Positions 13,967 through 35,665 of a stretch of DNA of 42,416 nucleotides are shown here, piece after piece. A program made the translations under genes and the position numbers. Position 1 is the first letter of the stretch, and every line of letters begins with the position of its first letter. The notes beneath the pieces are model-generated. The model worked only from the letters and a program-made list of their open reading frames with translations, had not been told where the DNA came from and ran no database searches. The stretch comes from Fibrobacterota bacterium (GTDB taxonomy: Bacteria; Fibrobacterota; Fibrobacteria; UBA11236). Where the stretch lies: contig JAYUVP010000065.1 in the NCBI GenBank assembly GCA_043753995.1, positions 1-42,416 of the forward strand, given 5' to 3'.

Positions 13967-14187
13967 TTTATGCTCGGCTTCAATGGGTAAGGAAATAGAT
14001 TATACTGGACTCGTAATAGCCATTGTCATTGAGCTTGGATGAAGGTGCACTCGAATTTGTATCACTTTTTTTTCAAAGAAAATTCATACTGGTGCCGCTC
14101 TCTGGGTGCTCTTGAACCCGAAACTTGATCATGCTATATCCATTTGCAGCGCGGCTATTCTGCGGCGCATTTTCAGACGCGGAATTC

Positions 14188-15710: not shown

Positions 15711-15871
15711 ACGGGTCCATAACTTGCGACTGTTTCCTTGATCACAGTGTGAACCTGGGAAGCATTTGGTGAGGCTAGCGTTTCAAATTTGAAGTAATCT
15801 CTCATTTTCCAGGGATATCTGGACAGGAGCCTCGTCCTAGCGATAAGATTCGCCGGTATCCGGGAGGAGTG

Positions 15872-16345
15872 ATGGCTGACGCGGGCATCAAGGCCGAACA
15901 TGTTAATCCGTTCATCGCGGCGACCATCGATATGTTCGAGACCATGGCGAATCTCCAGGCCAAGCCCGGAAAGATGTGTTTAAAAGACAAACACATTTCG
16001 GCCTATGACGTGTCGGGTATCATCGGATTAAGCGGGGGAGCAAAGGGGCTGGTGGCCCTCAGCTTTCCCAAGGCTTCCGCTTTGGCGGCCGTTCAGGCCT
16101 TCACCGGGGAGAAAGACGTCAAGAAGAGCCGGATTATCGATTCCATTGGCGAACTGGCGAATATCGTCGCTGGCGCCGCGAAAAAAGATCTCTCGCAGTT
16201 CAAGATCAAAATATCGCTTCCTACGGTAATCACGGGTGAGAACCATTCCATTTCGGGTCCGGTGGATGCGATGGGATTGGTGGTTCCCTTTGAGTATGCC
16301 GGGGGGAAATTCGATTTGACGGTGTGTTTTAAAAGTCTGATTTAA
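15872..16345 (+). CDS. cheX: Chemotaxis phosphatase CheX
   Basis: NPFI, DVSGIIGLSG, ELANIVAG and ISLPTVITG motifs. Confidence 0.93.
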   Translation: MADAGIKAEHVNPFIAATIDMFETMANLQAKPGKMCLKDKHISAYDVSGIIGLSGGAKGLVALSFPKASALAAVQAFTGEKDVKKSRIIDSIGELANIVAGAAKKDLSQFKIKISLPTVITGENHSISGPVDAMGLVVPFEYAGGKFDLTVCFKSLI

Positions 16346-16358
16346 GCGGGAATGGATT

Positions 16359-16778
16359 ATGAAAATACTGCTCGTGGATGACTCAGGCATGATTCGATCG
16401 GTACTGAAAAAATATCTGACCGATCTCGGCTTGAGCGATTTCGCCGAGGCCCCCGACGGAGTATTCGCCTTGAGAGCCGTGGCGGCCCAAAAGATCGATC
16501 TCATTTTCATGGATTGGAACATGCCCAATCTTTCCGGGTTCGAAGCCCTGAAAAAGTTGAAAGCGAATCCGGCAGCCAAGTCCATCCCCATTATCATGGT
16601 CACGTCGGAACAGGAGAAGGGCCATATCCTGGAAGCCGTGAAAGCCGGCGCCGCCAACTACGTGATCAAGCCCTTCTCGGCGGCGGTGATCAAAGAGAAG
16701 ATGGCGCCCTATTTGCCTCAGCCTCCTGTGAAGGCTCCCGAACCGCCCTCCGCGGACGCCGAGAAGAACATCCCCTGA
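16359..16778 (+). CDS. cheY: Chemotaxis response regulator CheY
   Basis: Single receiver domain with VDDS, DWNMP, MVTSE and YVIKPF. Confidence 0.92.
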   Translation: MKILLVDDSGMIRSVLKKYLTDLGLSDFAEAPDGVFALRAVAAQKIDLIFMDWNMPNLSGFEALKKLKANPAAKSIPIIMVTSEQEKGHILEAVKAGAANYVIKPFSAAVIKEKMAPYLPQPPVKAPEPPSADAEKNIP

Positions 16779-16794
16779 GGGGCCGATATCTGTT

Positions 16795-19023
16795 ATGGAA
16801 CAAATGGAAGAGTTCGCCAAGGAATTTCTGACCGAAACCCGAGAGGGTATCGACAGGTTCGACCAAGAGCTGCTGGTGCTGGAAAAGGAGCCTCCGACTC
16901 TAGAGACCATCTCCGAAATCTTCCGCGTCGTTCATTCCATCAAAGGCGGCTGCGGGTTCCTGGGCTTCGTGAAATTGGAATCCCTGGCGCATAGCGGGGA
17001 AAACCTGCTGAGCAGCATGCGCGACGGGAAGCTCGCGCCCAGCAAAGATCTCATCACCTCCCTGTTCAAGCTGAGCGACGCCATTCGCGGAATCGTCCGA
17101 TCTATCGAGGCAGGCGATTCCGAAGGGGATCTGGACCCGGCGCCGCTGATCCGGGAATTGTCCACCTTCCAACCGGATTGGGTCGGGAAGGCGCCATCCG
17201 CCCAGCCTGTGGATGACTTTTCGGCCGTCGAGGCGGTCGCCAAGCCGAAGGAAATCTCGGAAGGCGGCGCAGGCCAGAAAGAGGGGCATGCCGCTTCGGA
17301 GCAGACCATTCGGGTGAATGTGGCCTTGCTGGACAAGCTCATGAATCTGGTCGGGGAACTGGTCCTGGTCAGGAACCAGGTATTGCGTTACTCGCAGCTC
17401 TCCGGTAACAACCAACTAACGGTGCCTTCGCAGCATCTCAACCTGCTCACCACCGAGCTGCAAGAAGGTGTGATGAAGACCCGCATGCAGCCGATCAAAC
17501 ATGTGTGGGGAAAGTTCCCCCGCATCGTTCGGGAGCTTTCCATCTCATGCGGGAAAATGGTCCAGGTGGAAATGGTCGGCGACGACACCGAGCTGGACAA
17601 AACCATTCTAGAGGCCATCAAGGATCCGCTTACTCACGTGCTGAGGAATTCCGTGGATCATGGCATCGAGGCTCCGGATATCCGCGAGGCCCAGGGGAAG
17701 CCGCGCGAGGGCAAGATCGCCCTCAAGGCCTTCCATCAAGGCGGCCAGGTCATCATTGAAATTTCCGATGATGGGGCGGGCATCGATTGCGCGCGCGTGG
17801 CGGTCAAGGCATTGGAAAAGGGTCTGATCAATCATGAGAAACTGGCCAAGATGCAGGATTGGGAATTGGCGCAGCTCATTTTCCTCCCCGGTTTTTCCAC
17901 GGCGGAAAAAATCACCACGGTTTCGGGCCGCGGCGTGGGCATGGACGTGGTCAAGACCCACATCGAAAAAATCGGCGGAGCCGTGGATCTTCTCAATCGC
18001 CCGGGATTGGGATTGACCTTGCGGATAAAAATTCCCCTCACCTTGGCCATCATCCCCGCCTTGATCGTGGAGAGTTATAACCGGCGATTCGCCATTCCCC
18101 AGATCAATGTCCTAGAAGTGGTTCGCCTGAAGAAGGCCGAATTAGCAAGCGGCATGGAGTGGTTCCAGGAAACCCCCGTGTACCGACTCAGGGGTAAATT
18201 GCTCCCCTTGGCGCGGTTGGACGGACTCTTCGAAAAGCCGGGGCCGGGCGCAAAGGACGCGAAAGTCGCGGGCTCTCCTTACCAGGGCAATTTCGTCGTA
18301 GTGCTGCAAGCAGAAAATCACCATTTCGGTATCCTGGTCCATTCGGTGCAGGATACCCAGGAAATCGTGGTGAAACCGATGAGCAAGTATCTGAAATCCT
18401 CCCTATTCGCGGGCGCCACCATCATGGGCGACGGCAAGGTGGCGCTGATCATGGACGTCCCCGGGTTGGCCCAAAGGGCCCGTTTGACCCGCGAAATGGA
18501 AGCCCGCGATGCAGCCGACTCGGGCGCAGAAGATCTAGACCGGCATAAGGTGAGCATGTTGATTGTGGAGTGTCATTCCCATGGTCTGCTGGCCATTCCC
18601 GTCGCGAACATATCCCGCTTGCAGGAAATACCCTGCTCGGCGATCGAAACCATGTCGAATGCGGAAGTATTCCAAAGCCGCGGCCGCATCCTCCCGATTT
18701 TCCGGATCAACGGAATGTTGCGGGGCGGGCGGACTCACGAGACAGATGCTTCCGTCCACGCGAATAGCGTCCTGAGCGTAGTGGTATTCAGTGAAGGAGA
18801 GCAATCCGCGGGCTTCGTGGTGGATCGGATCCTGGACATCGTGACTGTGATCCCGGAAATCCATTTGCCCTCCAGCGGTCCAGGGTTCAGGGGCAGCATG
18901 ATTATCAAAGGGAAGGCTACGGAAATCCTGGACCTGGCCGCTCTTGCCCGATCGGCGCTCCCTGCGGTATTCGCGGGACGGGAAGACTTCCATGTCTCCC
19001 AAAACCACCGAATGGACGTTTGA
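16795..19023 (+). CDS. cheA: Chemotaxis histidine kinase CheA with two C-terminal CheW-like domains
   Basis: HSIKG (P1), TIRV..LLDKLMNLVGELV (P3), RNSVDHGIE, DDGAGID and SGRGVGMDVV (P4), then two CheW-like domains. Confidence 0.96.
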   Translation: MEQMEEFAKEFLTETREGIDRFDQELLVLEKEPPTLETISEIFRVVHSIKGGCGFLGFVKLESLAHSGENLLSSMRDGKLAPSKDLITSLFKLSDAIRGIVRSIEAGDSEGDLDPAPLIRELSTFQPDWVGKAPSAQPVDDFSAVEAVAKPKEISEGGAGQKEGHAASEQTIRVNVALLDKLMNLVGELVLVRNQVLRYSQLSGNNQLTVPSQHLNLLTTELQEGVMKTRMQPIKHVWGKFPRIVRELSISCGKMVQVEMVGDDTELDKTILEAIKDPLTHVLRNSVDHGIEAPDIREAQGKPREGKIALKAFHQGGQVIIEISDDGAGIDCARVAVKALEKGLINHEKLAKMQDWELAQLIFLPGFSTAEKITTVSGRGVGMDVVKTHIEKIGGAVDLLNRPGLGLTLRIKIPLTLAIIPALIVESYNRRFAIPQINVLEVVRLKKAELASGMEWFQETPVYRLRGKLLPLARLDGLFEKPGPGAKDAKVAGSPYQGNFVVVLQAENHHFGILVHSVQDTQEIVVKPMSKYLKSSLFAGATIMGDGKVALIMDVPGLAQRARLTREMEARDAADSGAEDLDRHKVSMLIVECHSHGLLAIPVANISRLQEIPCSAIETMSNAEVFQSRGRILPIFRINGMLRGGRTHETDASVHANSVLSVVVFSEGEQSAGFVVDRILDIVTVIPEIHLPSSGPGFRGSMIIKGKATEILDLAALARSALPAVFAGREDFHVSQNHRMDV

Positions 19024-19510
19024 GGTGGCCCAATACTGCACCTTCTACCTCGGCGAGCAAACCTATGGATTGGATATCCTTTCCATCCAGGAAATCGTTC
19101 GGCTCCCGGACATCACGCCGGTTCCGGATACGCCGGCATTCGTTGCGGGGCTGATGAACCTGCGTGGCCAGATCGTCGTGGCCGTAGACCTGAGAAAACT
19201 TTTCGGGCTGCCTCCGCTTCCGCGTTCCCAGGCGCCCATCAATATCATCCTGAGTTCCAAAGAGGAATTGCTGAGCCTGCTGGCCGATCGCGCGGGCGAT
19301 GTGGTTGACTTCGGGGCCGAGGCCATGGTGCCGCCATTGAGTTTACAGAGAGGCCGGACCTCGGATTTGATCAAAGGCGTTTACAAGCTCAAGGATACCC
19401 TGCTGAACGTCCTCGACACGGAAGCCATTTTCAAAGACCGGAATGTCATGGATGCCAACGCGCTCCAACCCGATTTCGTAGGAGAAACAGATGTCCAAGA
19501 ATCCCAGTAA
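18992..19510 (+). CDS. cheW: Chemotaxis coupling protein CheW
   Basis: YCTF.L....YG, ITPVP and GLMNLRGQI motifs. Confidence 0.93.
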
Positions 19511-20963
19511 ATCGGGCCTGCTCACCAAATTCGGCGAGTCCAAAATCCACACCAAGTTGGTGACCTTGGTGGTGTTTTTCTTGGCCTCATTCATCCTCTT
19601 CGCCGGAATGGCCTGGCAGGCCGTCGAGACCGTGCGCATCCGGGGGCCGTATTACAACAATATCGTCCAGAGCAAGGATCTGATCGCCGATATCCTTCCG
19701 CCTCCGGAGTACCTGATTGAAAGCTATCTCACCGTGCTGGAAATGACCGAAGAGCCGGATCCGCAGAAGCTGGCGGCGTTGATCGAAAAGGGCAAACAGC
19801 TCAGGGTCGACTACGAGACGCGTAAGGAATTCTGGACCACGGATCTTAAGGAAGGGAAGATCAAGAACACCCTCCTGGTTGCCTCCTATGCACCTGGCAT
19901 GGAATTCCTGGAAAAGCGAGATAAAGAATTCATTCCCATGCTCTTGCGTGGAGACCGGGCGGGAGCGAAAAAACTCGCCAACACCTACCTGAAGCAGAAG
20001 TACGGGGACCACCGGGCCGCCATCGACCAGGTCGTCGCCATGTCCAACGAGAAATACAAGCAGGACGAAGACGCGGCCAGTTCCATTCTCCGGATCTACA
20101 CCCTCCTGATGTCCGGGTTCGCCGTGGCCATCATGGTCGCCATGTCCTTGTTGTGCTGGTATATCATCCGCAAGATCGCGGGCTCCCTAGTGGCAATCTC
20201 CAAGGGCCTGGACTCAGCGTCCACCAAGTTGACCGAAGTGAGCCAGCAGATGAGCGCCAACGCGGAGGAAACCTCCTCGCAAGCCACCTTGGTCTCCTCT
20301 TCAAGCCACCAGGTGAATCAGAGCGTGCAGACGGTAGCCATCGGCACCGAAGAAATGTCGGCGAGCATCCGGGAAATCTCCAAGAGCACCTCCGAGTCGG
20401 TGCGCGTGGCGGAATCGGCGGTCAAGATGGCGGAGTCCACGAACGCGGACGTCACCAAGCTGGGCGCGGGCAGCGAAGAAATCGGGGAAATCATCAACCT
20501 CATCACTTCCATCGCCGAGCAAACGAACCTGCTTGCCCTGAACGCCGCTATCGAAGCGGCAAGGGCGGGAGAAGCTGGCAAGGGATTCGCCGTGGTGGCC
20601 AATGAAGTGAAGGAGTTGGCGCGAGAAACCGCCAAGGCCACGCAGGACATCAAGCTGAAAATCCAGGCCATCCAGAACAGCACCAAGGGCGCCATCGGTT
20701 CCATTTCGGAAATCGGGAATATCATCCGGCAAATCAGCGACATCCAGACCACCATTGCCAGCGCCGTGGAGGAGCAGACGGTGACCACCAACGAGATGGC
20801 CAAGAACGTATCCGAAGCGGCCAGGGGAAGCGGCGAGATCACCAACAGCATCTCCGGGGTCGCGCAGGCCGCGCAAAGCACGGCCAACGGGGCCAGCGAC
20901 ACGAAAAAGGCCTCGGAAGAGCTGACCAAGATGCTGTCCGACCTGCAGCGATTCGTGGGATGA
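19491..20963 (+). CDS. Methyl-accepting chemotaxis protein
   Basis: Two TM helices flanking a helical periplasmic domain (ADILPPP); signalling hairpin [34 protein letters not shown]. Confidence 0.95.
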
Positions 20964-22114
20964 ATTCCCCCGGAAGGAAAATCCGGGTCCTGATCGTCGA
21001 CGACTCGGTTGTTGCCTGCAGGGTCCTGAGCGAAACGCTTTCCCGCGATCCCGGCATTGAGGTCGCGGGCACGGCCTTGTCCGGCCCCATCGCCTTGAGC
21101 CAGCTCGGAACCCTAGCGCCCGACCTGGTGATGCTGGATATGGATATGCCCGTCATGGATGGGCTGCAAACCTTGCTCGAGATCAAGAAAATCAAGCCCA
21201 AGCTTCCGGTGATCATGTGCAGCGCCTTGGTCGCGCCGGGTAACCGTCATGCCATGCAGGCCTTGCTGGGAGGTGCCGCGGATTGCGTGACCAAACCCTC
21301 GGCCCATATGAACGAGGGCAGCGGTCTAGGCCCCTTCTCCAGGGAACTGCTCAGCAAGATCAAAGCGAATTTCAACCCCAAAGACAAGCCGCCCGCGGCC
21401 TCTATTCTGTCAGCGAAAGCAACTGCGACTGCGATCTCAACTGTGACCGCGACGGCGGCCCCGATACTTTCGCCTCCGATCTTTGGTAGCCTCAAATCCA
21501 TGGGCCTTCCGGAAATCCTCGCCATCGGCGTCTCCACGGGTGGGCCTCAAGCTTTGGCCGAGCTGATTCCAGGGCTTCCGGCGGACTTCCCGGTGCCCAT
21601 CGTCATCGTCCAACATATGCCGCCGCACTTCACCAAGGCCCTGTCCGACAGTGTGGGCAGCAAATCGCGCCTCAAGGTGGTGGAAGCGGTCGAAGGTTGC
21701 AGGCTGGAAAAGGGGACAGTCTGGATCGCACCCGGCGGTTCCCACATGCGGGTGGTAAAACGGAAGAGCGGCTACGAACTGGTCCTCAATTCCGATGAGC
21801 CGGAAAATTCCTGCCGTCCGTCCGTGGACGTCTTGTTCCGGTCCGTGGCCGAAGCTTTCGGCTCCAAGGTGCTCGCCGTGGTCCTCACGGGAATGGGCCA
21901 GGACGGGCTGGCGGGAGCGGAAGCCATCCGTCGCGCCGGCGGCTCCGTCTTCGTTCAGGACGAGGCCAGCAGCGTGGTTTGGGGGATGCCCGGAGCTATC
22001 GCGAAGGCAGGTTTGGCGGATAGGATTCTCCCCTTACTGGATTTGCCGATGGAAATCCAGGCCGTATTTTCCAAAAAGCCTCTGATGGCGAATCCCCCAG
22101 AACTACCGAGGTAA
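20960..22114 (+). CDS. cheB: Chemotaxis methylesterase CheB
   Basis: Receiver domain plus GVSTGGP, VQHMP, RPSVD and LTGMGQDG. Confidence 0.96.
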
Positions 22115-22121
22115 ACCGGAT

Positions 22122-22946
22122 ATGGCCGTCACCGAAGCGGATTTCCTTTTCATTTCCAACCTTCTATACGATCGGTTGGGCATCCGCCTCGAAAAGGAAA
22201 AGGAATACCTCGTCGAGGCCCGCCTCGCCAAAGTCGCGGAAAGGGCGGGCGTGGGCGATTTGGAAAAACTCGTCCTATTGCTGAAGTCGGGCCGCCCCCC
22301 GGAAGCGGTGTTGAACGACACCCTGGAAGCGATGACGACCAACGAAACCTTTTTCTTTCGGGATACCGCGCCATTCGACGCTCTCAAGGAGAACGTTTTG
22401 CCGGTCATCGTCGCCAAGAAGCGCAACGAGAAGTCCATCAATATTTGGTCCGCCGCCTGTTCCACCGGACAGGAAGCTTTCAGCATCGCCATGACCCTCA
22501 GGGAATCCTTTCCCCACCTATCCAGTTGGAATATCCGGATCTTCGCGACCGATGTGGCCGCCAAGGTCCTGGCGAAGGCCCAGGAGGGGATTTTCAACCA
22601 GACGGAAATGAATCGCGGAGTCACTCCGCAATTGCTGGCCAAGTATTTCGTCCGGCAAGATGGGAAATGGGCAATTCGGGACGAGATCCGGAAAATGGTT
22701 TCTTTCCGGCCATTGAACCTGATCCATCCTTGGCCCCTGCTGCCGAAAATGGACATCGTATTCCTTCGCAATGTCCTTATTTACATGGATAACGACAGCC
22801 GCAAAGACATACTGGCCCGCGCCCACAAGCAATTGGAACCGGGAGGTTACCTGTTTCTCGGTGCCGCCGAATCCACCTACAACCTGTCTGAAATGTTCAC
22901 CAGGATGGACTGGAAAAGCTCCGGGTGTTTCCAGTCTGTTTTGTAA
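22122..22946 (+). CDS. cheR: Chemotaxis methyltransferase CheR
   Basis: TTNETFFFRD, IWSAACSTGQE and RNVLIY motifs. Confidence 0.96.
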   Translation: MAVTEADFLFISNLLYDRLGIRLEKEKEYLVEARLAKVAERAGVGDLEKLVLLLKSGRPPEAVLNDTLEAMTTNETFFFRDTAPFDALKENVLPVIVAKKRNEKSINIWSAACSTGQEAFSIAMTLRESFPHLSSWNIRIFATDVAAKVLAKAQEGIFNQTEMNRGVTPQLLAKYFVRQDGKWAIRDEIRKMVSFRPLNLIHPWPLLPKMDIVFLRNVLIYMDNDSRKDILARAHKQLEPGGYLFLGAAESTYNLSEMFTRMDWKSSGCFQSVL

Positions 22947-23203: not shown

Positions 23204-23466
23204 CTTTAACGTTTACGCCAGTGGGGAGTGGCCTGGGAAGGCATGCGCTTTTAGCGAGGATGAGGCAGAAGTGGGGCTTATGTCCCCTGGATGCCGCACC
23301 CGCAGCTCGCAGTGAAAACCATTTTTGAGCAAGCGTAAGGAGGCATCTGCGAAGTCACGCGCCGCTCAAAAATGAGTTTGAATTGCCGACCATACACCTT
23401 ACCATGCCATTTGCGGACGCGCAATGCGAAGCATGCCCGCGCGACTCTGGCTGGGCTTTGTTGGGC
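23204..23466 (-). mobile_element. Degenerate long attC-like palindrome
   Basis: Minus strand GCCCAAC ... GTTAAAG ends, imperfect L-box pairing and an internal 11-bp IR (CATTTTTGAGC / GCTCAAAAATG). At 263 bp with an atypical spacer it is non-canonical. Confidence 0.35.
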
Positions 23467-23581
23467 GGAGTGGGCTGAGAACTTTTGGGGGCGGTATCTT
23501 CCTCTCACTAAAAAGCATGGGATTTTTGCGCAGCCACAGTGCGAGAAGTTACAGTATTCATTTGGAGGCGGTTTTGGTTTA

Positions 23582-24040
23582 TTACCATTTTCTCTGCCAG
23601 GGCGTTTTTACTTCGTTTTCAAAAGTAAAGTCAAGACATTGACAATTAGTTTCCGCAAACCCAAGAAATGATTTTCTTTTTTCATCCTCGCTTACATCAC
23701 CGCAAGAATATGTAAAGTCAATCAATTTTTCATTTCGGATCCAGTCGGGCAATAATTGCTTTTCAAATTCCGACATATCTAACTCCCTTTTGTAACAATA
23801 AGTAGACGCGGAATCACCGAAATTAGAGGCTTCACCAGTCCCCTTTCCTTTTGAAAATTTACTATCCAACTTTCTTTTGAAGCGAAATACAGAATACCTG
23901 ACTGTGCCAATTAATTCTAAGTGCACGGATTGGATTTGATTGAATTGACTCAGGAATACCTTTTCCTTAACTTTTAAATCTTCACCAAATGAAGATCCAA
24001 TTATTATTGACATGCCAATGAAAAAGGGGGCTAAATTCAT
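23582..24040 (-). CDS. AT-rich hypothetical protein, probable integron gene-cassette ORF
   Basis: 152 aa, AAGGA RBS, signal-peptide-like N-terminus, much lower GC than flanks, starts about 90 bp after an attC R' site in the same orientation. Confidence 0.65.
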   Translation of the reverse strand: MNLAPFFIGMSIIIGSSFGEDLKVKEKVFLSQFNQIQSVHLELIGTVRYSVFRFKRKLDSKFSKGKGTGEASNFGDSASTYCYKRELDMSEFEKQLLPDWIRNEKLIDFTYSCGDVSEDEKRKSFLGFAETNCQCLDFTFENEVKTPWQRKW

Positions 24041-24123
24041 TTCTTTTCCTTTTTAATCAATTTTTCGTAGTAAAACTTTGCATTCAACTGCAAAGCCCCA
24101 TCTCTACCCACCTTGGCTAGTCC

Positions 24124-24262
24124 GCATAACGTCATGCTAACTTGCGAGCGAGGGTGAGGAGAGCGCCTGCGAAGCAGAAACGAACCGAACGTACCTGCGC
24201 GTCTTTCGCGTAAGCGAAAGACGCGCAGGCCGAGCATCGTCAAGTTGTGCACGTTGTTATGC
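24124..24262 (-). mobile_element. Integron attC recombination site
   Basis: Minus strand reads R'' GCATAAC, 5 nt, L'' GCACAACT, variable region, L' AGTTAGC, 5 nt, R' GTTATGC. Contains a perfect 16-bp hairpin at 24194-24229. Confidence 0.82.
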
Positions 24263-24540
24263 GGCTGCGCAGAAACCTTCGGGGCTTCTCGGACTATCAT
24301 ATAGTTTTGCCAAGGAACGGAATACCAAATCGCTTACTACTTAGAGTATTCGACAGCGCAATGGCTTTAGTGATTTGGTTTTCTGTCTTTATCACGTTGT
24401 GTTTAAAATAGTTTTTGTTGATCGTTTTGACTGAAGCAATGCATCCCGACCCCAAAAATTAAAATACCTTTGGCCCATTACGCCTAACTCATACTTAGGG
24501 AGTTATGGACATCGCATTTCTAATCGTAAATCGCGCCCCC

Positions 24541-24648
24541 CGCTTCTCTTCGGGGGAAGGTGAGGCCGACAAGTGCGACGGAGCAACGCGGGCCGAGCCT
24601 GGGGGGCGCTTGGGAAGCCCGGAACGAGAGGCTGAGCCCCCCTGAAAA
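24541..24648 (+). repeat. Dispersed structured intergenic repeat, copy 4
   Basis: Same core. Downstream flank GAAAACCTAGGTGAAGATCC resembles copy 1 GAATACAGGGTAAAGATTCC. Confidence 0.92.
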
Positions 24649-24703
24649 CCTAGGTGAAGATCCGGTATCTGTTGCTTGAATATTATTACAGAAAATAAAG
24701 TGC

Positions 24704-25672
24704 TTACTTCGACACGGCGTCGCCCGGAATGAATTTCATTCCCTCGCAATAAAGATCGGCGGTGGTCCTCAAGACCATGTCGGAATTGGGCTGGGAGCCG
24801 CTAGTCTCCAGTCGGAAAATGCCGAGACCGGTGAATTCGATGGTGGCCAGCACTTCGCGGCGATTGGGGGAGAGAAATTCCAACCGACCTTTTCTTTCTT
24901 CTTGGGGACCATGCTTGCCTTGGATGACGAAGGACTCAAACCAATCCTGCCAAGTCTGGGAAGACGCGCTGCTCAGGGTGATTTTCAGGTTGGGGAAATC
25001 CATTTTGCCGGGCTCACGGTAATAATCGCGAGTCTCCCCGGCCTTGGCCTCTGGCAAGACATGCTTCACGGTGAAGGACTCGATGCGGGCGATATGGGTG
25101 CAGTCCAGGCCGTCTAGGGTGAGACGAAAATTGGCCGACAACCACGCCCTCTCCTGGGTCACTCCCACGTTACTGGGTGAATTGCCCGAGCCTTTGACTT
25201 GCTGGGTGTATTCGGGCTTGAATTTGACGGTAAGGTTGCCTGGTTCTCGGCTGGAGCCGTCGCAAGCCGGCACGGTGGTTTCCGTGATGACGGCATTGAA
25301 AAATTCGCGCCTGAACTTGGTTTGCATCTGGTGGTCGGAGATGACGATGGCGCCATTCATGGGCTGAGAATTCTTGTTCCAGACCGAGGCAATCCAGTTG
25401 CTAAGGTCCGGGTCGGATGCGCCTATTCCGAATTGGATCTGAAAGGGCTCATAAATAGATCGGCCCAGTTGCTTGTCGGACTGTTGGCCGCCTTGGGCGA
25501 CGTCTTGCACTTCGGCAGTGATGGCGCCTCCTGCTACGCTTTTCAGAAAACCGACATGGCTGCCGTCCAACTCAAGGGCAAAGTTTGAAGCGGCATAAGC
25601 GCGCTGAGCATTCGTTTCGAGGGTCAGGCTCGCAAGGGCCAAGAAGGCGAGGGCAGGGATGGATTTCTGCAT
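24704..25672 (-). CDS. Signal-peptide-bearing protein with two tandem phage tail-tube (T4 gp19/Afp1-like) domains
   Basis: AGGAG RBS before ATG 25672; MQKSIPALAFLALASLTLETNA signal peptide; two repeats beginning NFALELDG and NFRLTLDG with gp19-like G..(Y/F)..(F/L).I, W and G.(I/L) patterns. Confidence 0.78.
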   Translation of the reverse strand: MQKSIPALAFLALASLTLETNAQRAYAASNFALELDGSHVGFLKSVAGGAITAEVQDVAQGGQQSDKQLGRSIYEPFQIQFGIGASDPDLSNWIASVWNKNSQPMNGAIVISDHQMQTKFRREFFNAVITETTVPACDGSSREPGNLTVKFKPEYTQQVKGSGNSPSNVGVTQERAWLSANFRLTLDGLDCTHIARIESFTVKHVLPEAKAGETRDYYREPGKMDFPNLKITLSSASSQTWQDWFESFVIQGKHGPQEERKGRLEFLSPNRREVLATIEFTGLGIFRLETSGSQPNSDMVLRTTADLYCEGMKFIPGDAVSK

Positions 25673-26111
25673 GGGGGACTCCTGTTTCCGCTCATTCACT
25701 GGCGGCGTGAGGCAAACATATCCCAATCCTCGCTCCGCATCTGTGATGGCGGTCACAGGGTGACCGTTGCATTGTCTTGTCCGTCGTGGACTCCACAACT
25801 AAAACGCGCGCCCGATTATAGGTGCATAGCTCAATCAATCCACTATTCCGATTTTTCCGCTTGGCCGGAAACCAGATATTCAGTAGTTACGTCACCCTAT
25901 ATATTTTTATGCGTTTCTTTTTCCACCTTCTCCTGCGACTCCGGAATGATTCGCTTGTGCCACTTGCTATTGGAAGCCAATACGCCGAAGGCGCAAGGGT
26001 TGCGCGGCGATCGGCTCGGAAATGCGGAAGGAACTATATTCTATACGTCGCGCTTCAAAACATTTTTCAATCCTATTTCGGCAACGTGCAATTCGTTGAA
26101 GAGGTACTCTC

Positions 26112-29021
26112 ATGAAATGGCATGAATTTATTGGGGCGCTTAGGATTGCGGCCATCCTCCTGATTCCCTCGAATCTCGTAGCCGGGCTAGTTCCCGCTCC
26201 ATCCATGGAAGTTACGGCCCTAGGGCTCAAGCTAGGTGCGCCCATGCAGGCCCTGGAAGCCTATGTAAACCCCACCGGCGTAAGGTTCCGCTCGGTTTCC
26301 AAATCCGAAGGCCGCGAGGATTTCTCGATCATTCCGATATCCATGGATAATCAATCGATTCCATCGGTAGGCGTGGCTTCCTCTTCAGATTCGAATTCGA
26401 TATTGCTTGATAAGGAGATTTTGATCGAGCGATTCTCGGCAAGCTCCGAGGGAATACGGCAGGATTTCATCGTTCGGGACCGGCCCCGAGTAAATGGCAG
26501 AATGAAGATTCAGTTAATGGTTCATGGCGCACTCGCGCAGTCCGCGAATAGAGGGATTTCGCTATCGCTTCCATCGGGCCGGGCATTTGTCTACAACAAA
26601 TTGAAGGTGATGGATGCGAATGGGAAGTCTCTGGAAGCCAGTATGCTTGCATTGGAAAAACAAAAGATCGAAATCGCCGTGGAATTTTCAGGCGCGCGGT
26701 TTCCGGTAACCATAGATCCGACCCTAACCGATGCGGATTGGATGGCCTTAAACAAAGAGGGTATTCAAGGGGCTAATGGGGCGATAAACTCTTCAGCAAG
26801 CCATGAAGGGAATTTCTATTTCGGCGGGGGATTTTCGGGAGCTGGGAATATTTCCGCCCATAATATCGTGAAGTGGGATGGCAGCAAATGGGATTCGCTT
26901 GGATCAGGGACAAGCGGTATTATAAAGGCACTAGTTTGCGATAGTATCGGAAATTTGTTCGTCTGCGGCTCTTTCAAATATGCTGGAGGACATCCGGTCT
27001 ATGGAATCGCAAAATGGGACGGAACAAATTGGAGCGCCTTGGGATCGGGGCTGGTAAACGAATTGTTTTGCTCCGCATTATCCATTGGCAAGGGCGGGAA
27101 ATTATATGCCGGTGGCGATTTCACCAAGATGGGGTCGCAGAGCATTGCTGTTTGGGATGGTGTCGAGTGGAAAGGATTGGGGACCGGACTGACCTCGAAA
27201 ACCAAGTGGGGTGGGATTGTCAGGTCCATTGCCTGCGACACGGCGGGAAACGTATACGCCGGAGGAAACCTAGATACAGCCGGAAACTTGCCTGCAGATG
27301 GCATTGCTAAATGGAATGGATCGAGGTGGAGTGCCTTGGGAAAAGGGATCCACAAGAAAGCCTCTGGTCAAGAAGTATCCGTCCTTGCCTGGGACAGCTA
27401 TGGGAATCTGTATGCAGGAGGAACATTCGATTCCATAGGGGATGTCTCGGCTTCCAATATTGCTAAGTGGGACGGGAATGCCTGGAGCGCGTTAGGATTT
27501 GGCGTCAATAATAACGTTGCCGCCCTTGTTTGCAAGCCTTCCGGAAATGTCGTTGCGGGTGGAGCATTCACCAGCGCCGGTATAATTCCGGCCAATCACA
27601 TAGCGGAGTGGAACGGTATCCTCTGGGCTCCCCTCGGTGCAGGACTGGATAAACCCGTTTCCACTCTTGCTTATGATGGGTCTCGCGCGCTTATCGCATG
27701 CGGAATTGCTTATGGGTCCCATAGCTACCCATTCAGTTCCATATCGCAATGGGATGGAAGCGCATGGAGCCCGATCGGGAATGGAATAAACGGCCCCATC
27801 AGGGATATTGCCGCCGATAAAAAGGGAAATCTCTTTTTCGGTGGGGACTTCACTACCATCGGCGGCATAAAAGCAAATCATCTCGCGCAATGGGATGGAA
27901 GCGTCTGGAGCGGGATGGGTGGCGGTTTAAACCGCTCAGTGAACGCTCTTTTGCTTGATAACGAAGGGTTTCTTTATGCGGGTGGAAACTTTGATTCGGC
28001 CGGAGGAATAAAATCGAAATCGATAGCCAAGTGGGATGGGAAAAAATGGAGCCCGCTAGGTTCCGGCTTGAATGTAAAGGGCAATGACGGGGGAAATTAC
28101 GTTGCAAAACTTGCATTCGATAAAAAAGGGCGTGTCATTGCGGGAGGAGTATTCGATTCGGCCGGAGGGGTCGCGGTACATTATCTAGCCATGTGGGACG
28201 GAAATAGATGGAGCTCAATGGGACAGGGAATGGATGCTTTAGTTAGCGCTTTTGCCAACGATAGCAGCGGAAACCTATACGCCGCCGGACCTTTAACGGT
28301 CAGCAGCCGTTGGAAGGCTTCCGTTGCCCGGTGGGATGGGGAACGATGGGAGGCCCTTCACTCCGATACCTTATTCGGATTTTATCCCTATGCTGTAATT
28401 TGTGATGCCAAAGGAAATCTCTATGTCGGCGGCGATTTCAAATCCATAGAGGGTGTGCCAGCCAAAAATATTGCGAAATGGGATGGAAGCAATTGGAGCG
28501 CAGTTGGATCCGGGGTGGACAGCGCCGTTGGGAACCTGGCTATCGACAATTCGGGAAACATTTATGCGAGCAGCAAGGTGCCTGCCGGCATTTCGAAATG
28601 GGATGGAACGAGGTGGACCGAAATCGGGTCCGGGACCGATAAGCTCATTTTCGCCATGAGGATTTTCGATTCCACTCTGTATGCAGGAGGGAATTTTGTC
28701 CAAATCGGTGGCAAAAATTCCGCATGCATGGCTCGCTGCAATTTGCACACCCCCGCAAGCAACTCGATTCAATATGGTCTCAGCGAAAACGCCGCGGCCT
28801 CTCCTCCTGATTATAGGTGGATCCATTCCATCCTGGTTTTTTCCAATATCGAGAAGAACGACATGATTTCCATTACTTCACTTTCCGGTCGGCAAGTGTA
28901 CGCGGCCAAAGGGGCCACGCATATCGATCTTTCCGGCCTTGGGCCCCAGGTCCTTGTGGTGCGGGTCCATCGATCGGAAAGAACTATTTCTACCGGCATG
29001 GTGATGATAGAGCCTAGGTAA
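26112..29021 (+). CDS. Large secreted repeat protein: N-terminal beta domain, Rax2-like beta-propeller repeats, C-terminal sorting-like domain
   Basis: Signal peptide; FPVTIDP domain end; 13 W(D/N)GxxW repeats with YAGG.F strands; C-terminal SLSGRQV. Confidence 0.78.
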   Translation: MKWHEFIGALRIAAILLIPSNLVAGLVPAPSMEVTALGLKLGAPMQALEAYVNPTGVRFRSVSKSEGREDFSIIPISMDNQSIPSVGVASSSDSNSILLDKEILIERFSASSEGIRQDFIVRDRPRVNGRMKIQLMVHGALAQSANRGISLSLPSGRAFVYNKLKVMDANGKSLEASMLALEKQKIEIAVEFSGARFPVTIDPTLTDADWMALNKEGIQGANGAINSSASHEGNFYFGGGFSGAGNISAHNIVKWDGSKWDSLGSGTSGIIKALVCDSIGNLFVCGSFKYAGGHPVYGIAKWDGTNWSALGSGLVNELFCSALSIGKGGKLYAGGDFTKMGSQSIAVWDGVEWKGLGTGLTSKTKWGGIVRSIACDTAGNVYAGGNLDTAGNLPADGIAKWNGSRWSALGKGIHKKASGQEVSVLAWDSYGNLYAGGTFDSIGDVSASNIAKWDGNAWSALGFGVNNNVAALVCKPSGNVVAGGAFTSAGIIPANHIAEWNGILWAPLGAGLDKPVSTLAYDGSRALIACGIAYGSHSYPFSSISQWDGSAWSPIGNGINGPIRDIAADKKGNLFFGGDFTTIGGIKANHLAQWDGSVWSGMGGGLNRSVNALLLDNEGFLYAGGNFDSAGGIKSKSIAKWDGKKWSPLGSGLNVKGNDGGNYVAKLAFDKKGRVIAGGVFDSAGGVAVHYLAMWDGNRWSSMGQGMDALVSAFANDSSGNLYAAGPLTVSSRWKASVARWDGERWEALHSDTLFGFYPYAVICDAKGNLYVGGDFKSIEGVPAKNIAKWDGSNWSAVGSGVDSAVGNLAIDNSGNIYASSKVPAGISKWDGTRWTEIGSGTDKLIFAMRIFDSTLYAGGNFVQIGGKNSACMARCNLHTPASNSIQYGLSENAAASPPDYRWIHSILVFSNIEKNDMISITSLSGRQVYAAKGATHIDLSGLGPQVLVVRVHRSERTISTGMVMIEPR

Positions 29022-31434: not shown

Positions 31435-32823
31435 TCAGGGGAGGAGTTGGGGCTGGAGAATCGCAGGCGCCAAAGACCTTGCGGCATAGGCGCTGGAAAG
31501 CATAGCCATAGAGGCATCTGAATGCGGCCACCCGTCGGTATACAGATTATAACCGACGCAACGCGGGCTGCTGGAAATGGCCACCCAATCCTGTAAGGCC
31601 TGCATTCTTGTCTGCTCGGGTTGGCCGTCGGGATAGGCCCAGGTAAACGCGAAATTCAGCCCATTGTTTTCGAAGAACTTCGCGACGGCGCGGGTGTCAT
31701 AATACCAGACGTCCTTGGTGATCTGCATTTGAACCTCTTCCTTCCTGTAAATGCTGGAAAAGACTGCAGCATAGTCCAGACCGGTACGAGTGCGTTGGTA
31801 ATTCCAAGGCCGGAAGACGATTCGAGATTTCTTCAGCGAGGAAAAATTAGGCGTTCCGCCGAAATGTTTTTGCCCCACCATGGGATCGATGGCATCAGCA
31901 TAGGTGTAAAGCATGGCACCGGTGATAATCGGATGCGTCTTGGCAATATCGTCGATATACCCGACCTTCTTATTGTATTCCGCCAATAAGGCATTCATCC
32001 AAGTTGTAGCCGAGCTATAGCCATTGTCGGCGATTCTATTGAGGCTGGGATCGACAAGAACTTTATAGGAATAAGGCTCATCCCCACCCAAATCCACCGA
32101 AGCAATAGGAGAAGCGATGCCGGTCTGCCTTTGAAATTCCTCATGGGCAATGCAGAACGCGGTCAGGGTGCTTTTCCAGGTTTTATCGGCTTCGGGATTG
32201 TTGGTTGATTTCACCAAGGTTTCCACGGTCGCTATGGTCGGACTATTCGTAACCGTGCGCTTGGAGCTGAATCCGAAAAACCTCATAACGCCGGTAACCA
32301 CCTTGTCGACTAGGACTCCGACGACATGTACTGCCGCGCCGGCCGTGCCCAAGGTGGAATAGCAAGCCCACCCAACGATTGGGCTCCATCCATAGGCGTC
32401 GCCGCAGCCGGTCCAGCTTTGCACTAGAAGTATCGACGCCAGGCTTTTGATGTCGGTATCCTTGACGGAGACCATGGTGATTTTGCTGTTCACAATATTC
32501 GAAGCATCCCATTTCGATTGCCCGGAGACCTTGGGATATAGCTTCAGGGTGCCATTGGAAAGGGTATTGACTCGATGGAGCAATGCCAGATAGTCCTGCA
32601 CCAATCGGCTATCGACGCGATTGTTGTGAACCCCATTGGTGTATTCCGCTGTGTATGTGCCATAGTTCGGGCATACCCACATGGTGGTATAGCCGGCGGA
32701 AACTGCCTTCCGAATGAAGTCATCGGAAATGCTTTCAATGGGTCCACCAGGGGCGATTGACTTCAGGTTTTGCCCGAAGGAAGCGCTGAGGATCAGCAGC
32801 GCCAGTCCAAAAAAGTTTTTCAT
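31435..32823 (-). CDS. Secreted GH20-like TIM-barrel protein with a hydrophobic insertion
   Basis: Signal peptide; LYPKV, NPEA, VDLGGDEP (like GH20 HxGGDE), YADAIDP and PWNY in GH20 order. Start overlaps the upstream stop (ATGA). Confidence 0.55.
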   Translation of the reverse strand: MKNFFGLALLILSASFGQNLKSIAPGGPIESISDDFIRKAVSAGYTTMWVCPNYGTYTAEYTNGVHNNRVDSRLVQDYLALLHRVNTLSNGTLKLYPKVSGQSKWDASNIVNSKITMVSVKDTDIKSLASILLVQSWTGCGDAYGWSPIVGWACYSTLGTAGAAVHVVGVLVDKVVTGVMRFFGFSSKRTVTNSPTIATVETLVKSTNNPEADKTWKSTLTAFCIAHEEFQRQTGIASPIASVDLGGDEPYSYKVLVDPSLNRIADNGYSSATTWMNALLAEYNKKVGYIDDIAKTHPIITGAMLYTYADAIDPMVGQKHFGGTPNFSSLKKSRIVFRPWNYQRTRTGLDYAAVFSSIYRKEEVQMQITKDVWYYDTRAVAKFFENNGLNFAFTWAYPDGQPEQTRMQALQDWVAISSSPRCVGYNLYTDGWPHSDASMAMLSSAYAARSLAPAILQPQLLP

Positions 32824-33236
32824 TCAAGCCTCGCCTTCAAGACAATTCCCGCATCGCTGGTAGCGGCGGTGGGATGGGTTCCTGTGAGAATCAGGTAACA
32901 CTTGCCAGACGCCTCAAGCAATTTGGTTTTGAACCCTGCGCTCACTTGCGCGTCGCCTTCCCAAATGCGCCCATCATCGGGGCAGGACAAGGTCTGGGAA
33001 ACCAAGGTGAGAGCAACTCCGGGAGTCACAACTACCACGGCGCTGGGAATCGTATAGCCTGTGGGCCTTTTGCCGGCGATATTCAAGAAATCGACCTCGG
33101 CATCCCCCGTCAAGAGCCCGCCCCTTTGATAGAGAAGGATGCGGAAGACGTATTCCAAGCCAATGGTTCCTACGCCGGCGATTTTTGAAAATGAAGGAAC
33201 GCTGCACAACAAGACAAATGCCAAGACGCATTTCAT
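32820..33236 (-). CDS. Secreted hypothetical protein (138 aa)
   Basis: GGAGG RBS, signal peptide MKCVLAFVLLCSVPSFS, two Cys in the mature part, translationally coupled to the downstream gene. Confidence 0.7.
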   Translation of the reverse strand: MKCVLAFVLLCSVPSFSKIAGVGTIGLEYVFRILLYQRGGLLTGDAEVDFLNIAGKRPTGYTIPSAVVVVTPGVALTLVSQTLSCPDDGRIWEGDAQVSAGFKTKLLEASGKCYLILTGTHPTAATSDAGIVLKARLE

Positions 33237-33312
33237 GGATTTCACAGACGACCCCCTCCAGAATAAGAAAGCATTCGACGCTCCCAGGTGTTTCGAGGAC
33301 AGTTGAGGTTGA

Positions 33313-33675
33313 TTACTCGACATCCAGGCCAGAGCTTATGTCGTAGACCTCAGTGGTTGTGGGGATGAGCCCTTTATTGCAGGCGCAGAAAGCCACGGTG
33401 CGCCCAGTCGACTTTGCAGTAAGCACCATGGACACGATGGTGTTGTAGCGGGCATTAGTGGGCGCGACACCAAGCCAAATACCGTTGTCATTGACGATAT
33501 TCCCAGTAGTCGAATTGTCCTTGGGGACAACGTTGAATCCGAACCAATTGTTCCCATTCATGCGGACGGACTTGATCGTATACCCCGACGACCAAGACGT
33601 CTTGTCGAAAGCGCCGGCGATAGCCGCCAAAACAAAAACAAAAACAACGATGTTCTTCGCGATGCGATTTCTCAT
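33313..33675 (-). CDS. Small secreted protein, possible OB-fold AB5 B-subunit-like
   Basis: Signal peptide (AGA|F). YNTIVSMVLTAKSTGRTVAF resembles the StxB helix-strand NLQSLLLSAQITGMTVTI. Confidence 0.55.
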   Translation of the reverse strand: MRNRIAKNIVVFVFVLAAIAGAFDKTSWSSGYTIKSVRMNGNNWFGFNVVPKDNSTTGNIVNDNGIWLGVAPTNARYNTIVSMVLTAKSTGRTVAFCACNKGLIPTTTEVYDISSGLDVE

Positions 33676-33767
33676 AATACGTTTCCCTTCGCCCTATGGG
33701 CGTTAACCAAGCATTGACCAAATATTGAAAAGGCGCGGGGACAATCTATATCTACCCCACCAGCATG

Positions 33768-34136
33768 TCAATTACTGATGCTGACGCTATCGCCAGAATG
33801 GATCTGGATGAAGTATTCATTCGTCATCGCATGTCCATTGGAGAAGTAGCCGAATCTCCTGGTAAAGGGTTCGTTCCCGGCCGACGATGAGTACACAAAT
33901 CCGCCATCACCTGGAGGAAGGGTGAAGACTCTTACGACAGTGTCGCGTATACCGAGTTCGGGGATTTGCTGGCAATTCGAGGTGCTTTCAATGCACACAT
34001 CGATTTTGGTTATCGCTTCCCCAGATTTGTTGGAAAGTGATATTGAAACCACCTCAGGTTTGTCATTTTCGGTCGAACATCCAAAGAAACCCACCATGGT
34101 GGCAATGCAAACTAAACCTATCGCTTTCATATCCAT
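33768..34136 (-). CDS. Small lipoprotein, hypothetical (Ig-like beta sandwich)
   Basis: Lipobox FFGC; beta-rich sequence with ISLSNKSG and FGYFSNG. Confidence 0.72.
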   Translation of the reverse strand: MDMKAIGLVCIATMVGFFGCSTENDKPEVVSISLSNKSGEAITKIDVCIESTSNCQQIPELGIRDTVVRVFTLPPGDGGFVYSSSAGNEPFTRRFGYFSNGHAMTNEYFIQIHSGDSVSISN

Positions 34137-34174
34137 ATACCGTCCTTCATGAATGGGCAATCAAGTGCGTAGTA

Positions 34175-34219
34175 TAAAGAAAACGATGCCCTTAACCCAT
34201 CGCATTGGAAAAGGGCATC
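34175..34219 (-). terminator. Rho-independent terminator
   Basis: GATGCCCTT / AAGGGCATC stem followed on the minus strand by GTTTTCTTT, about 10 bp after the 34229 stop. Confidence 0.7.
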
Positions 34220-34228
34220 AGAAATAGT

Positions 34229-35665
34229 TCAGTAGACCGAAACCTTGTAGGATACGAAGTCGACATCATTAAAACGCTTAATCCTGAATTCCATGGACTG
34301 GCCAGCGGTCTGCGTATAATGCATGCTAATTGAATTCTGGTTCGGGTGGGTATTCGGAATGTCACCCATTCTTAAAACTCGTTGATTAAGGATACGTCCC
34401 GTCGAAGCGCTAAAAATTTGTACTTCCGCGAGATCTTTGTTCCCCGGATAACTTGTCCAGGCGGAAACATCAAACTGCACGCGCCTCAGGCCCGCGGGAA
34501 TATCTGTGGCATAGGGCCCGAAAACCATGAATCCACTAGGCTGACCGTACATGTTCCAGCAAAAGCTGGATGCGCAACTATACGAGTATGCGCCGGTATT
34601 CTGGTGATACATCGCATTCGGATCGTAGACTTTCAATTGGGTCGTCAAGGGCGTATTCGGTGCGATGTAGACAACACCACTCGCGGCGGGCCATAACATT
34701 TCCGTGTCTGAAAATGTTGCATTATCCGTTTTGCTCTTCACCGCCGCTTTGAGATCCGCAGTCGGGGGGCTCTCGACCCATCTCGTGTCCCAACCCCACC
34801 AGCTGAGGGCGCCCCGGTTAGTCGAAACGCTATACCAGTAGTCGCGACCGACTTTGTTGTTGTGCAAATCCATCTTGGTATCGAGATAGATGGAGTTCTC
34901 ACGGCATGACTCATGGGCGCTGGCGAATTCCTCCGCCCATTCAACGGCATCCTGTCGATGCGGTCCCTCATGCTTGTTGTAATGCGCTAGGAGCACGTTC
35001 CAAATGGTGTGCCGGAATGCGTCTCCCTGCGTCATGTGGCCATTGTTGCCATAAAATTCCACTTCCCAAGCAAAGGCATTATTGCTCGCACTTTGTGTCC
35101 CATCGATATAAGTCGGGCTCCCCAACAACAGCCAATACTCATCATCGCAGAGGCCGTATGCTTCTTGGTACGGGTAGCTGAACGATTGCTTTTTCAGCGA
35201 GCCGGTCTTGCCTTTGCCGTCGAGATGCTTCAGGACGTCCTTGAACAGGAAGTACCTGATTTTTGCGTTATACTTTTCAAGGACAGCGACCTGGTCTTTA
35301 ACCATTTCCTGCCGGGTCATGCCAAGCTCAGATTCGACCTTTTGCAATTCCACTTCCGACAGATTCTGAAAATCGGGCATTTTTACGGTTAGGTTCTTGT
35401 AAATGGCTCCTAATTCCGAGATGCTGAGTGGCAGCTCTTTTTTGGAGGCGGAGGATTTCGCAAGCGGCGATTTCGCGATTGCTGCGTAGAACGCCTGCTT
35501 GTAGTCCTCCATGGTAATCTTGGTGTAATCGTCCGAAAGGCCGCTCATTAGTGGCTCCTCGGAAACGGCATCGCCCTCCTTATTATGTATGACATCTGCC
35601 ATTTGGCAATTGAACAATACGCTGGCGGCAACGGCTGCCAGCATCAGATTTTTGCAAAATCTCAT
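34229..35665 (-). CDS. Lipoprotein with DUF6973-like domain and C-terminal CBM-like domain
   Basis: Lipobox LFNC; DAFRHTIWN...AHE...MDLHNNKVGR motif; C-terminal beta-sandwich with FMVFGPY and MEFRI. Confidence 0.7.
   Translation of the reverse strand: MRFCKNLMLAAVAASVLFNCQMADVIHNKEGDAVSEEPLMSGLSDDYTKITMEDYKQAFYAAIAKSPLAKSSASKKELPLSISELGAIYKNLTVKMPDFQNLSEVELQKVESELGMTRQEMVKDQVAVLEKYNAKIRYFLFKDVLKHLDGKGKTGSLKKQSFSYPYQEAYGLCDDEYWLLLGSPTYIDGTQSASNNAFAWEVEFYGNNGHMTQGDAFRHTIWNVLLAHYNKHEGPHRQDAVEWAEEFASAHESCRENSIYLDTKMDLHNNKVGRDYWYSVSTNRGALSWWGWDTRWVESPPTADLKAAVKSKTDNATFSDTEMLWPAASGVVYIAPNTPLTTQLKVYDPNAMYHQNTGAYSYSCASSFCWNMYGQPSGFMVFGPYATDIPAGLRRVQFDVSAWTSYPGNKDLAEVQIFSASTGRILNQRVLRMGDIPNTHPNQNSISMHYTQTAGQSMEFRIKRFNDVDFVSYKVSVY

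Follow-up and report, generated by a model that had tools for sequence, protein, structure and literature searches.

To our knowledge, the tube proteins of phage tails, tailocins, extracellular contractile injection systems (eCIS) and type VI secretion systems (T6SS) have been known only as parts of machines that are assembled in the cytoplasm. The inner tubes of eCIS and other contractile injection systems (CIS) are leaderless, single-domain proteins of ~150 residues that form hexamers in the cytoplasm and are always encoded beside sheath and baseplate genes, and the T6SS tube protein Hcp (TssD), which forms rings by itself, is also single-domain and leaderless and is expelled by a sheath. 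The tandem tube proteins of siphophages carry two tube domains per chain; they are virion proteins of noncontractile tails, made in the cytoplasm and encoded in tail modules. For one of them, the tail tube protein (TTP) of phage P74-26, the available text of PMC10034513 describes head-to-tail trimeric, pseudo-hexameric rings and the spontaneous self-assembly of the purified protein into tubes, so a tandem tube protein can polymerize without other factors. Here we describe a gene from a Fibrobacterota bacterium that lies on the minus strand of a 42,416-nucleotide stretch of DNA (assembly GCA_043753995.1, contig JAYUVP010000065.1; hereafter the window, which is one complete contig of 42 kb, C65). 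Its 322-residue product (P0001) shares the fold of all three groups. Unlike the eCIS/CIS tubes, it is a fused pair of tube domains behind what reads in the sequence as a Sec-type leader, and no machine genes stand beside it; unlike the siphophage tandem tubes, it is cellular, probably exported, and absent from the phage collections searched.

We hold with moderate confidence that P0001 is an exported, machine-independent, ring-forming tube protein. Signal peptidase I would remove residues 1–22 to leave a mature protein of ~300 residues, made up of two fused CIS-type inner-tube domains that would derive from an internal duplication and are predicted to pack like adjacent subunits of a ring. Three copies would then join head to tail, domain 1 on domain 2 of the next copy, into a trimeric, pseudo-hexameric ring outside the cytoplasm, which in a diderm host would mean the periplasm or beyond, with no sheath, baseplate or spike involved.

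The tube fold is recognized both from the sequence and from the predicted structure. Pfam places the protein in PF06841 (Phage_T4_gp19), which is also the family of the eCIS/CIS inner tubes, with 61.5 bits against a cut-off of 28.2 (E 9.4e-17, in two stretches). In a profile–profile comparison with hhalign the two halves match each other over 130 columns (probability 96.1%, E 3e-9; profiles built from 67 family members, the same alignment that was fed to AlphaFold2, AF2), and a direct alignment of one half to the other gives a weak score (41, with 27.3 ± 4.1 for 200 shuffles, whose maximum was 45). The AF2 model contains two beta-rich domains, residues 30–160 and 182–316, with a predicted local distance difference test score (pLDDT) of 87.8 and a predicted template modeling score (pTM) of 0.83. 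As a whole, the model superposes on P74-26 TTP (8ed0; Z 17.4, root-mean-square deviation (rmsd) 3.9 Å over 271 residues; VIA) and on T5 pb6 (5ngj, 9iny; Z 16.8, rmsd 3.9 Å over 267 residues; VIA), in which the two tube domains of each chain are packed in the same way, as neighboring ring subunits. Each half by itself has the fold of the CIS-type inner tubes Pvc1 (6j0b), Afp1 (6rao), Streptomyces coelicolor (8bl4), Algoriphagus (7aeb) and T4 gp19 (5w5f), with Z 12.9–14.4 and rmsd 2.9–3.8 Å over 137–148 residues; domain 2 alone reaches Z 12.9–14.4 against the Streptomyces CIS, Afp1, Pvc1 and T4 gp19 tubes (VIA), and domain 1 superposes on the PVC tube-type chain 6j0n_n (Z 11.0) and on Hcp chains (VIA). 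Hcp shares the superfold at Z 9–10, and the Pfam TssD model remains below its cut-off (14.7 against 25.8, E 0.029), with no PF05638 match listed for P0001.

Foldseek ranks the two-domain tubes of phages P74-26 and T5 first, followed by single eCIS tubes (E 1e-9 to 1e-5). The solved relatives found by the sequence profile search are CIS tubes only, with S. coelicolor 8bl4 at E 3.9e-10 and then the Photorhabdus PVC tube 9qgl, Pvc1 and Afp1. The siphophage tandem tubes have 7–14% identity to P0001 and give no profile match, and the duplication is for that reason probably independent of theirs. PHROGs returns a weak "tail tube protein" match, and in the ESM Atlas the matches are confined to "phage tail protein" clusters with PF06841, which add nothing. 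P0001 is a CIS-type tube duplicated in tandem, which converges on the tandem-tube architecture of siphophages. It does not reach the curated NCBIfam cut-offs for the CIS inner tube (CIS1_fam, 29.6 against 220), for the tube adaptor (CIS5_fam, 18.2 against 260) or for TIGR02241 (45 against 62.4).

The features that suggest export lie in the first 22 residues. By inspection these have the layout of a Sec signal peptide, with a positively charged n-region (one lysine, K3), a hydrophobic core of 14 residues (I5–L18; 10–15 is the usual length of an h-region) and the junction T20-N21-A22|Q23, which places small residues at −3 and −1. The leader and an x-A|QR junction (T/V/A-x-A|QR) are kept in the six closest orthologues (51–74% identity), and AF2 models the leader as a detached helix with pLDDT 50–54. 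Leaderless relatives start M-A-D-V-R-S-Y-V and align with R24 onward, so that cleavage at A22|Q23 would make the mature protein begin almost exactly where they begin. Another possible site, AYA|A at 27/28, was set aside in favor of A22|Q23, which is the one conserved in the six orthologues, because in the leaderless relatives the mature fold starts at the positions aligned with residues 24–27.

The reading frame is intact from ATG (25670–25672) to TAA (24704–24706), and no credible start downstream of the hydrophobic leader was found. Only two TTG codons come into question there: codon 11 is in frame but has no purine-rich site, and codon 35 is in frame but would delete the first conserved strand. 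A longer frame from a TTG at 25798, which would add 42 residues, was rejected as well, having neither a ribosome site nor a counterpart in relatives. The preliminary description of this stretch had proposed an open reading frame (ORF) at 24704–25672 for a tandem gp19-type tube protein with a cleavable-type signal peptide, and these observations hold up: the ORF, the leader and two homologous tube domains were all found, the four pairs of motifs that it had matched between the halves are all paired in the profile–profile comparison, and the leader appears real and is conserved in the closest orthologues.

P0001 has many relatives. A word-indexed search gave 225 homologues at E ≤ 0.001, proteins of 177–564 residues, and when 1.84 billion cluster representatives were searched exhaustively with a profile, 4329 passed E ≤ 0.001 and 1798 passed E ≤ 1e-30, the latter figure counting clusters at 50% identity. 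Nearly all of the best 150 representatives span both tube domains, and 17 invariant columns are common to the family. Judging by names and record titles, its members come from Armatimonadota, Planctomycetota, Limnocylindria and other Chloroflexota, Gaiellaceae and other Actinomycetes, Gemmatimonadales, Symbiobacteriaceae and Syntrophaceae; in the phylum of the window itself, the tandem tube gene is present in 3 of 296 genomes, including that of the window. A tblastn search of 50,697 GenBank phage records found no match to the protein, and a pattern scan of IMG/VR for the family yielded none that was confirmed. The family is large, patchily distributed and purely cellular, and it uses Sec leaders, twin-arginine translocation (Tat) leaders or none.

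The leaders were classified by simple rules (extension length, hydropathy and twin-arginine pattern). Among 120 listed homologues, 40 are Sec-like, 11 Tat-like and 66 leaderless, with one other extension and two fragments; the 150 best representatives at 50% identity divide into 61 Sec- or transmembrane-like, 19 Tat-like, 43 leaderless, 25 with other extensions, several of which are degenerate R-x-R Tat-like leaders, and 2 that are truncated. The 21 loci studied at the genomic level comprise 8 Sec-like, 6 Tat-like (one degenerate), 4 leaderless and 3 ambiguous or frameshifted cases; two of the leaderless genes truly lack a leader, because a stop codon lies at most 10 codons upstream. Tat leaders predominate in the Chloroflexota loci, and Sec leaders in those of Planctomycetota, Armatimonadota, Gemmatimonadota and the clade of the window. 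On a FastTree tree of 118 mature domains, a quick tree that came with warnings about long branches, leader state changed at least 13 times, and its starred branches force at least three changes each for "none" and "Sec".

Long forms of the family carry additional domains. DUF4352, an Ig-like extracellular domain, follows the tube module at the C-terminus in 5 of the 25 long forms scanned, all five with Sec leaders, and other members of this set carry DUF922, or DUF4214 together with CIS_tube and Ig-like domains. A 2774-residue metagenomic representative (P0210), which could be a gene-call fusion, combines the tandem tube module with subtilase, N-acetylmuramoyl-L-alanine amidase, peptidoglycan-binding and phospholipase D domains. 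Some Hcp proteins carry fused enzyme domains, and P0210 resembles them in this respect. The fusion domains fit a life outside the cytoplasm, and one hints at conflict functions.

We turn to the surroundings of these genes. Pfam on 33 ORFs of the window recognized no phage, CIS or T6SS gene, and PHROGs on the 11 window ORFs with no or a weak Pfam match recognized no phage or CIS gene. For the relatives, homologous loci were located with a 17-sequence alignment, and Pfam was run on 200 ORFs picked up to 7 kb away from the 21 loci; sheath, baseplate, spike and tape-measure families are absent among them. Leaderless homologues occur, as described above, and none of them sits in an eCIS locus. An all-against-all blastp of the 200 neighbor ORFs and 17 window ORFs found no partner gene shared across phyla, only lineage synteny and antisense shadow ORFs. 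Within lineages the surroundings can be stable. In five Chloroflexota-type loci (L005, L012, L016, L019, L021) a methyltransferase with MTS, DUF7059 and DUF7782 always lies upstream of the Tat-type tandem tube gene, and pdxS/pdxT and thymidylate kinase are also nearby in two of the five, a housekeeping synteny that suggests long vertical inheritance; in two Planctomycetota loci mraW is divergent from the tandem tube gene.

Some of the relatives' loci hold other tube-like genes. On a Gemmatimonadales contig from a metagenome-assembled genome (MAG; L015:1085-14403), about nine genes follow one another on one strand, and most of them have Sec-type leaders. They encode two OmpA-like proteins, one protein with a TIG domain, one with repeats, a pair of paralogues (31% identity over 311 residues) that carry an unknown C-terminal domain, two tandem tube proteins borne on long Pro/Ala-rich linkers after the leader, and an Hcp (PF05638, E 3.3e-16) with its own signal peptide. 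This cluster may be a multipart exported tube-protein system. In an Actinomycetes MAG (L020; 4964–5443 and 10822–11322), 5 kb separate an Hcp gene (PF05638, E 1.8e-39) from the tandem tube gene, which is apparently frameshifted, and a short gp19-like ORF lies just downstream.

Prediction of the assembly was carried out with three copies of residues 23–322, a custom alignment and three controls. The interface score ipSAE was 0.71, 0.71 and 0.75, compared with 0.00 in all three controls. Of 30 proteins solved as pairs of one chain, 20 attain that mark, as does 1 of 23 solved as single chains, a calibration that is only rough here because a custom alignment and three copies were used. The runs agree in at least 73% of contacts, with a partner pLDDT of at least 77, and the predicted contacts run head to tail: domain 1 (44–55, 64–69) faces one neighbor and domain 2 (245–250, 284–294, 306–310) the other. 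Nine of the 17 invariant residues fall in the predicted interface, made up of 57 of the 300 residues (p 0.0013). The trimeric, pseudo-hexameric ring is predicted for P0001 and known for the siphophage tandem tubes, as the available text of PMC10034513 has it.

The models favor the pseudo-hexameric trimer geometry that the preliminary description had suggested, and its remark that no sheath, baseplate or spike gene is near applies both to the window and to the loci of the 21 homologues. Two of its other proposals have to be revised. A phage origin is not borne out, as the domains are closest to eCIS tubes and the family belongs to cells, with no member in the phage collections searched. The gene is also not unique, being one of ~1800 clusters at 50% identity, and it is an orphan in part: no CIS or phage gene shares its contig, but the genome has an eCIS-like locus on another contig, C170, to whose canonical tube both halves of P0001 align (28% and 16% identity). 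The coordinates of the gene and of this locus are collected in the table. Taken as a whole, the earlier interpretation is supported in part: its tandem tube fold, leader, machine-free loci and ring geometry stand, its phage origin does not, and its orphan status applies to the locus only. The three conditions under which it would have failed (a missing fold match, a later true start, leaderless homologues within complete eCIS loci) were checked, and none of them held.

Table. Positions of the tandem tube gene and its parts in the window, and of the eCIS-like locus on contig C170 of the same genome.
Feature	Position	Strand	Basis or content
Coding sequence of the 322-residue tandem tube-fold protein P0001, stop codon included	24704..25672	minus	ORF and translation; PF06841, 61.5 bits
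AGGAG ribosome-binding site	25679..25683	minus	6 nt before ATG, read from the sequence
Putative Sec-type signal peptide, residues 1–22	25607..25672	minus	n-, h- and c-regions read by eye; signal peptidase I predicted to cut at A22|Q23
Tube domain 1, about residues 28–165	25178..25591	minus	Best PF06841 stretch 29–150; AF2 strands 30–160
Tube domain 2, about residues 178–318	24719..25141	minus	AF2 strands 182–316; homologous to domain 1
eCIS-like locus on C170	about 1–22000		Sheath at 1029–1490
Canonical tube on C170	1914–2342		E 2.9e-45
Two Baseplate_J genes on C170	17297–17797 and 20092–20673		

A number of points weigh against an exported, machine-independent ring. The export of P0001 and its cleavage at 22/23 are read from sequence features and from relatives, and much of the family (66 of the 120 listed homologues, 43 of the 150 representatives) has no leader, so the fold can also function, or be released, in proteins with neither a Sec nor a Tat leader. 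The interface score shows a likeness to solved tubes rather than binding by this copy; it covers the partner copy only and not ring closure directly, and it may reflect the memory of the model, because tube rings have been solved abundantly. Mean conservation in the interface is also not significantly higher than in the rest of the protein (0.66 against 0.63, p 0.14). As to independence from a machine, neighbor ORFs were picked by a greedy longest-ORF rule that is crude in GC-rich loci, and in six of these an antisense shadow ORF displaced the tube gene itself; other neighboring genes may have been missed because such ORFs masked them. A match to the sheath family PF04984 (E ≤ 0.001) is present in 10 of 23 carrier genomes, in 6 of them above the cut-off; that it is absent from the other 13, among them an 8.2-Mb chromosome, counts for independence, in a tally limited by incomplete genomes, by sheaths outside PF04984 and by two carriers that are apparently the same genome. 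Because the genome of the window owns an eCIS, and because of these ten carriers, a link in trans between such a system and the tandem tube may exist here. Also in favor of independence, the sheath is on a different contig from the tube gene where it could be checked: in the genome of the window (G000), in G250 (C312 versus C305) and in G310 (positions beyond the contig of the tube gene). The read sets listed with the stretch are two sediment-metagenome DNA runs, from which it may itself derive, with no RNA run.

With these reservations, our working guess for an exported ring is a structural or binding element of the cell envelope, the alternative being a decoy for incoming tail tubes or their cargo. 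An extended form of the proposal, which we rate as rather unlikely, is a new kind of envelope or extracellular nanotube in which Sec- or Tat-exported tandem subunits would assemble by themselves into trimeric rings and these would stack into tubes with no need of a sheath, baseplate, tape measure or ATPase. In some lineages exported partners resembling Hcp and OmpA would take part, the Gemmatimonadales cluster being an example. A reading that dispenses with rings and tubes altogether, and that we find unlikely, takes the protein for a nonpolymerizing binding or carrier module, a monomeric or low-order beta-sandwich scaffold such as an adhesin or a carrier of secreted domains. The fusions to DUF4352, DUF922, DUF4214 and enzyme domains would suit this role, as would the Gemmatimonadales domain, which on its long Pro/Ala-rich linker after the leader looks like a tethered surface module, and the absence of initiator, tape-measure or terminator genes nearby in the window and the 21 loci. 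The packing of domain 1 on domain 2, however, equals that of ring-forming tandem tubes (Z 17.4), the head-to-tail interface is predicted with confidence and enriched in invariant residues, and a tandem tube protein is able to self-assemble alone (PMC10034513, available text). The decoy, in turn, is compatible with a ring and in our view distinctly unlikely: as an element of envelope defense, the exported ring would mimic an incoming tube at its tip or lumen, be it that of a phage tail, a tailocin, an eCIS or a T6SS, and cap it or bind its cargo, so protecting the cell. It would account for the scattered occurrence of the gene (in 3 of the phylum's 296 genomes), for its standing alone amid neighborhoods that vary, for export signals that were repeatedly gained or lost, and for the fusion in P0210 to a peptidoglycan amidase, a phospholipase D and a subtilase, domains typical of conflict proteins. 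On the other side, PADLOC has no model that matches the tandem tube protein or its two neighbors, defense genes are not among the conserved neighbors, and the methyltransferase upstream in five Chloroflexota loci suggests vertical inheritance in a stable housekeeping neighborhood.

The eCIS on C170 raises the question of whether the protein could belong to that machine after all, as a cytoplasmic spare part (an alternative tube, an adaptor or an initiator) whose N-terminus is no working signal peptide. The sheath, tube and two Baseplate_J genes on C170, the alignment of both halves to the C170 tube and the sheath matches in carrier genomes speak for such a role. We nevertheless regard it as very improbable, since P0001 scores far below the NCBIfam equivalog cut-offs (29.6 against 220 and 18.2 against 260), the carriers that lack a sheath match include a whole chromosome of 8.2 Mb, the tandem tube gene is never adjacent to CIS genes in the 21 loci, and the leader is conserved and in other lineages replaced by Tat leaders. 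Least credible of all, and extremely improbable, is a decaying prophage or CIS remnant without a present function. The gene does adjoin an AT-rich stretch, and three of the 21 loci appear frameshifted or broken (L011, L020, L023); against decay stand an intact ORF with a good ribosome site, a GC content equal to the contig mean of 55%, a family of 1798 representatives (E ≤ 1e-30) in many phyla with its 17 invariant columns in common, and the lack of any relative in the phage collections searched. An exported tube protein that forms rings without a machine remains the reading we prefer.

The tube fold is found here duplicated, freed from its machine and apparently provided with two export routes, Sec and Tat, in ~1800 clusters across many phyla. 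If rings or tubes do form in the envelope, they would be an undescribed structural or defensive element, and the protein would offer a naturally self-contained, secretable building block for nanotubes. A full-text literature search, outside whose scope further papers are possible, turned up no account of tandem gp19-type proteins that are exported or stand alone. In their available text, PMC11937823 deals with ordinary eCIS tubes, and PMC3482391 and PMC8987985 contain nothing on exported or stand-alone gp19-type proteins. Among the abundant extracellular proteins named in the accessible part of a secretome preprint (10.1101/2024.11.06.622250) is a short Phage_T4_gp19 protein, which is apparently not of the tandem family.

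The rest of the window contains genes of other kinds. A scan of 23400–26300 for promoters and terminators gave fewer sites than shuffled sequence and nothing usable, and an Rfam scan of the whole window gave no match. Downstream of the tube gene, positions 23400–24400 are AT-rich (GC 35–46% against 55% for the contig) and include a minus-strand ORF of 152 residues (23582–24040) whose N-terminus is hydrophobic and for which none of the family libraries gave a match. A chemotaxis operon, CheX to CheR, occupies 15869–22946, upstream of the tube gene in window coordinates, and the window also encodes a divergently transcribed 969-residue beta-propeller protein, hydrolases and sugar-active enzymes. 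Five consecutive ORFs on the minus strand at 31435–35665 (462, 167, 120, 130 and 478 residues) look like an unannotated operon; none has a Pfam or PHROGs match except the last, which contains DUF6973. At 12785–14943 an ornithine/arginine decarboxylase is divergent from a methyltransferase of the NNMT/PNMT/TEMT family (PF01234, E 3.4e-35), a family better known from animals. On the plus strand, at 8834–10915, a protein of 693 residues carries eukaryote-type protein-arginine deiminase domains (PF03068, E 7.4e-52, and PAD_M) behind a CarboxypepD_reg domain; this deiminase family is uncommon among bacteria.

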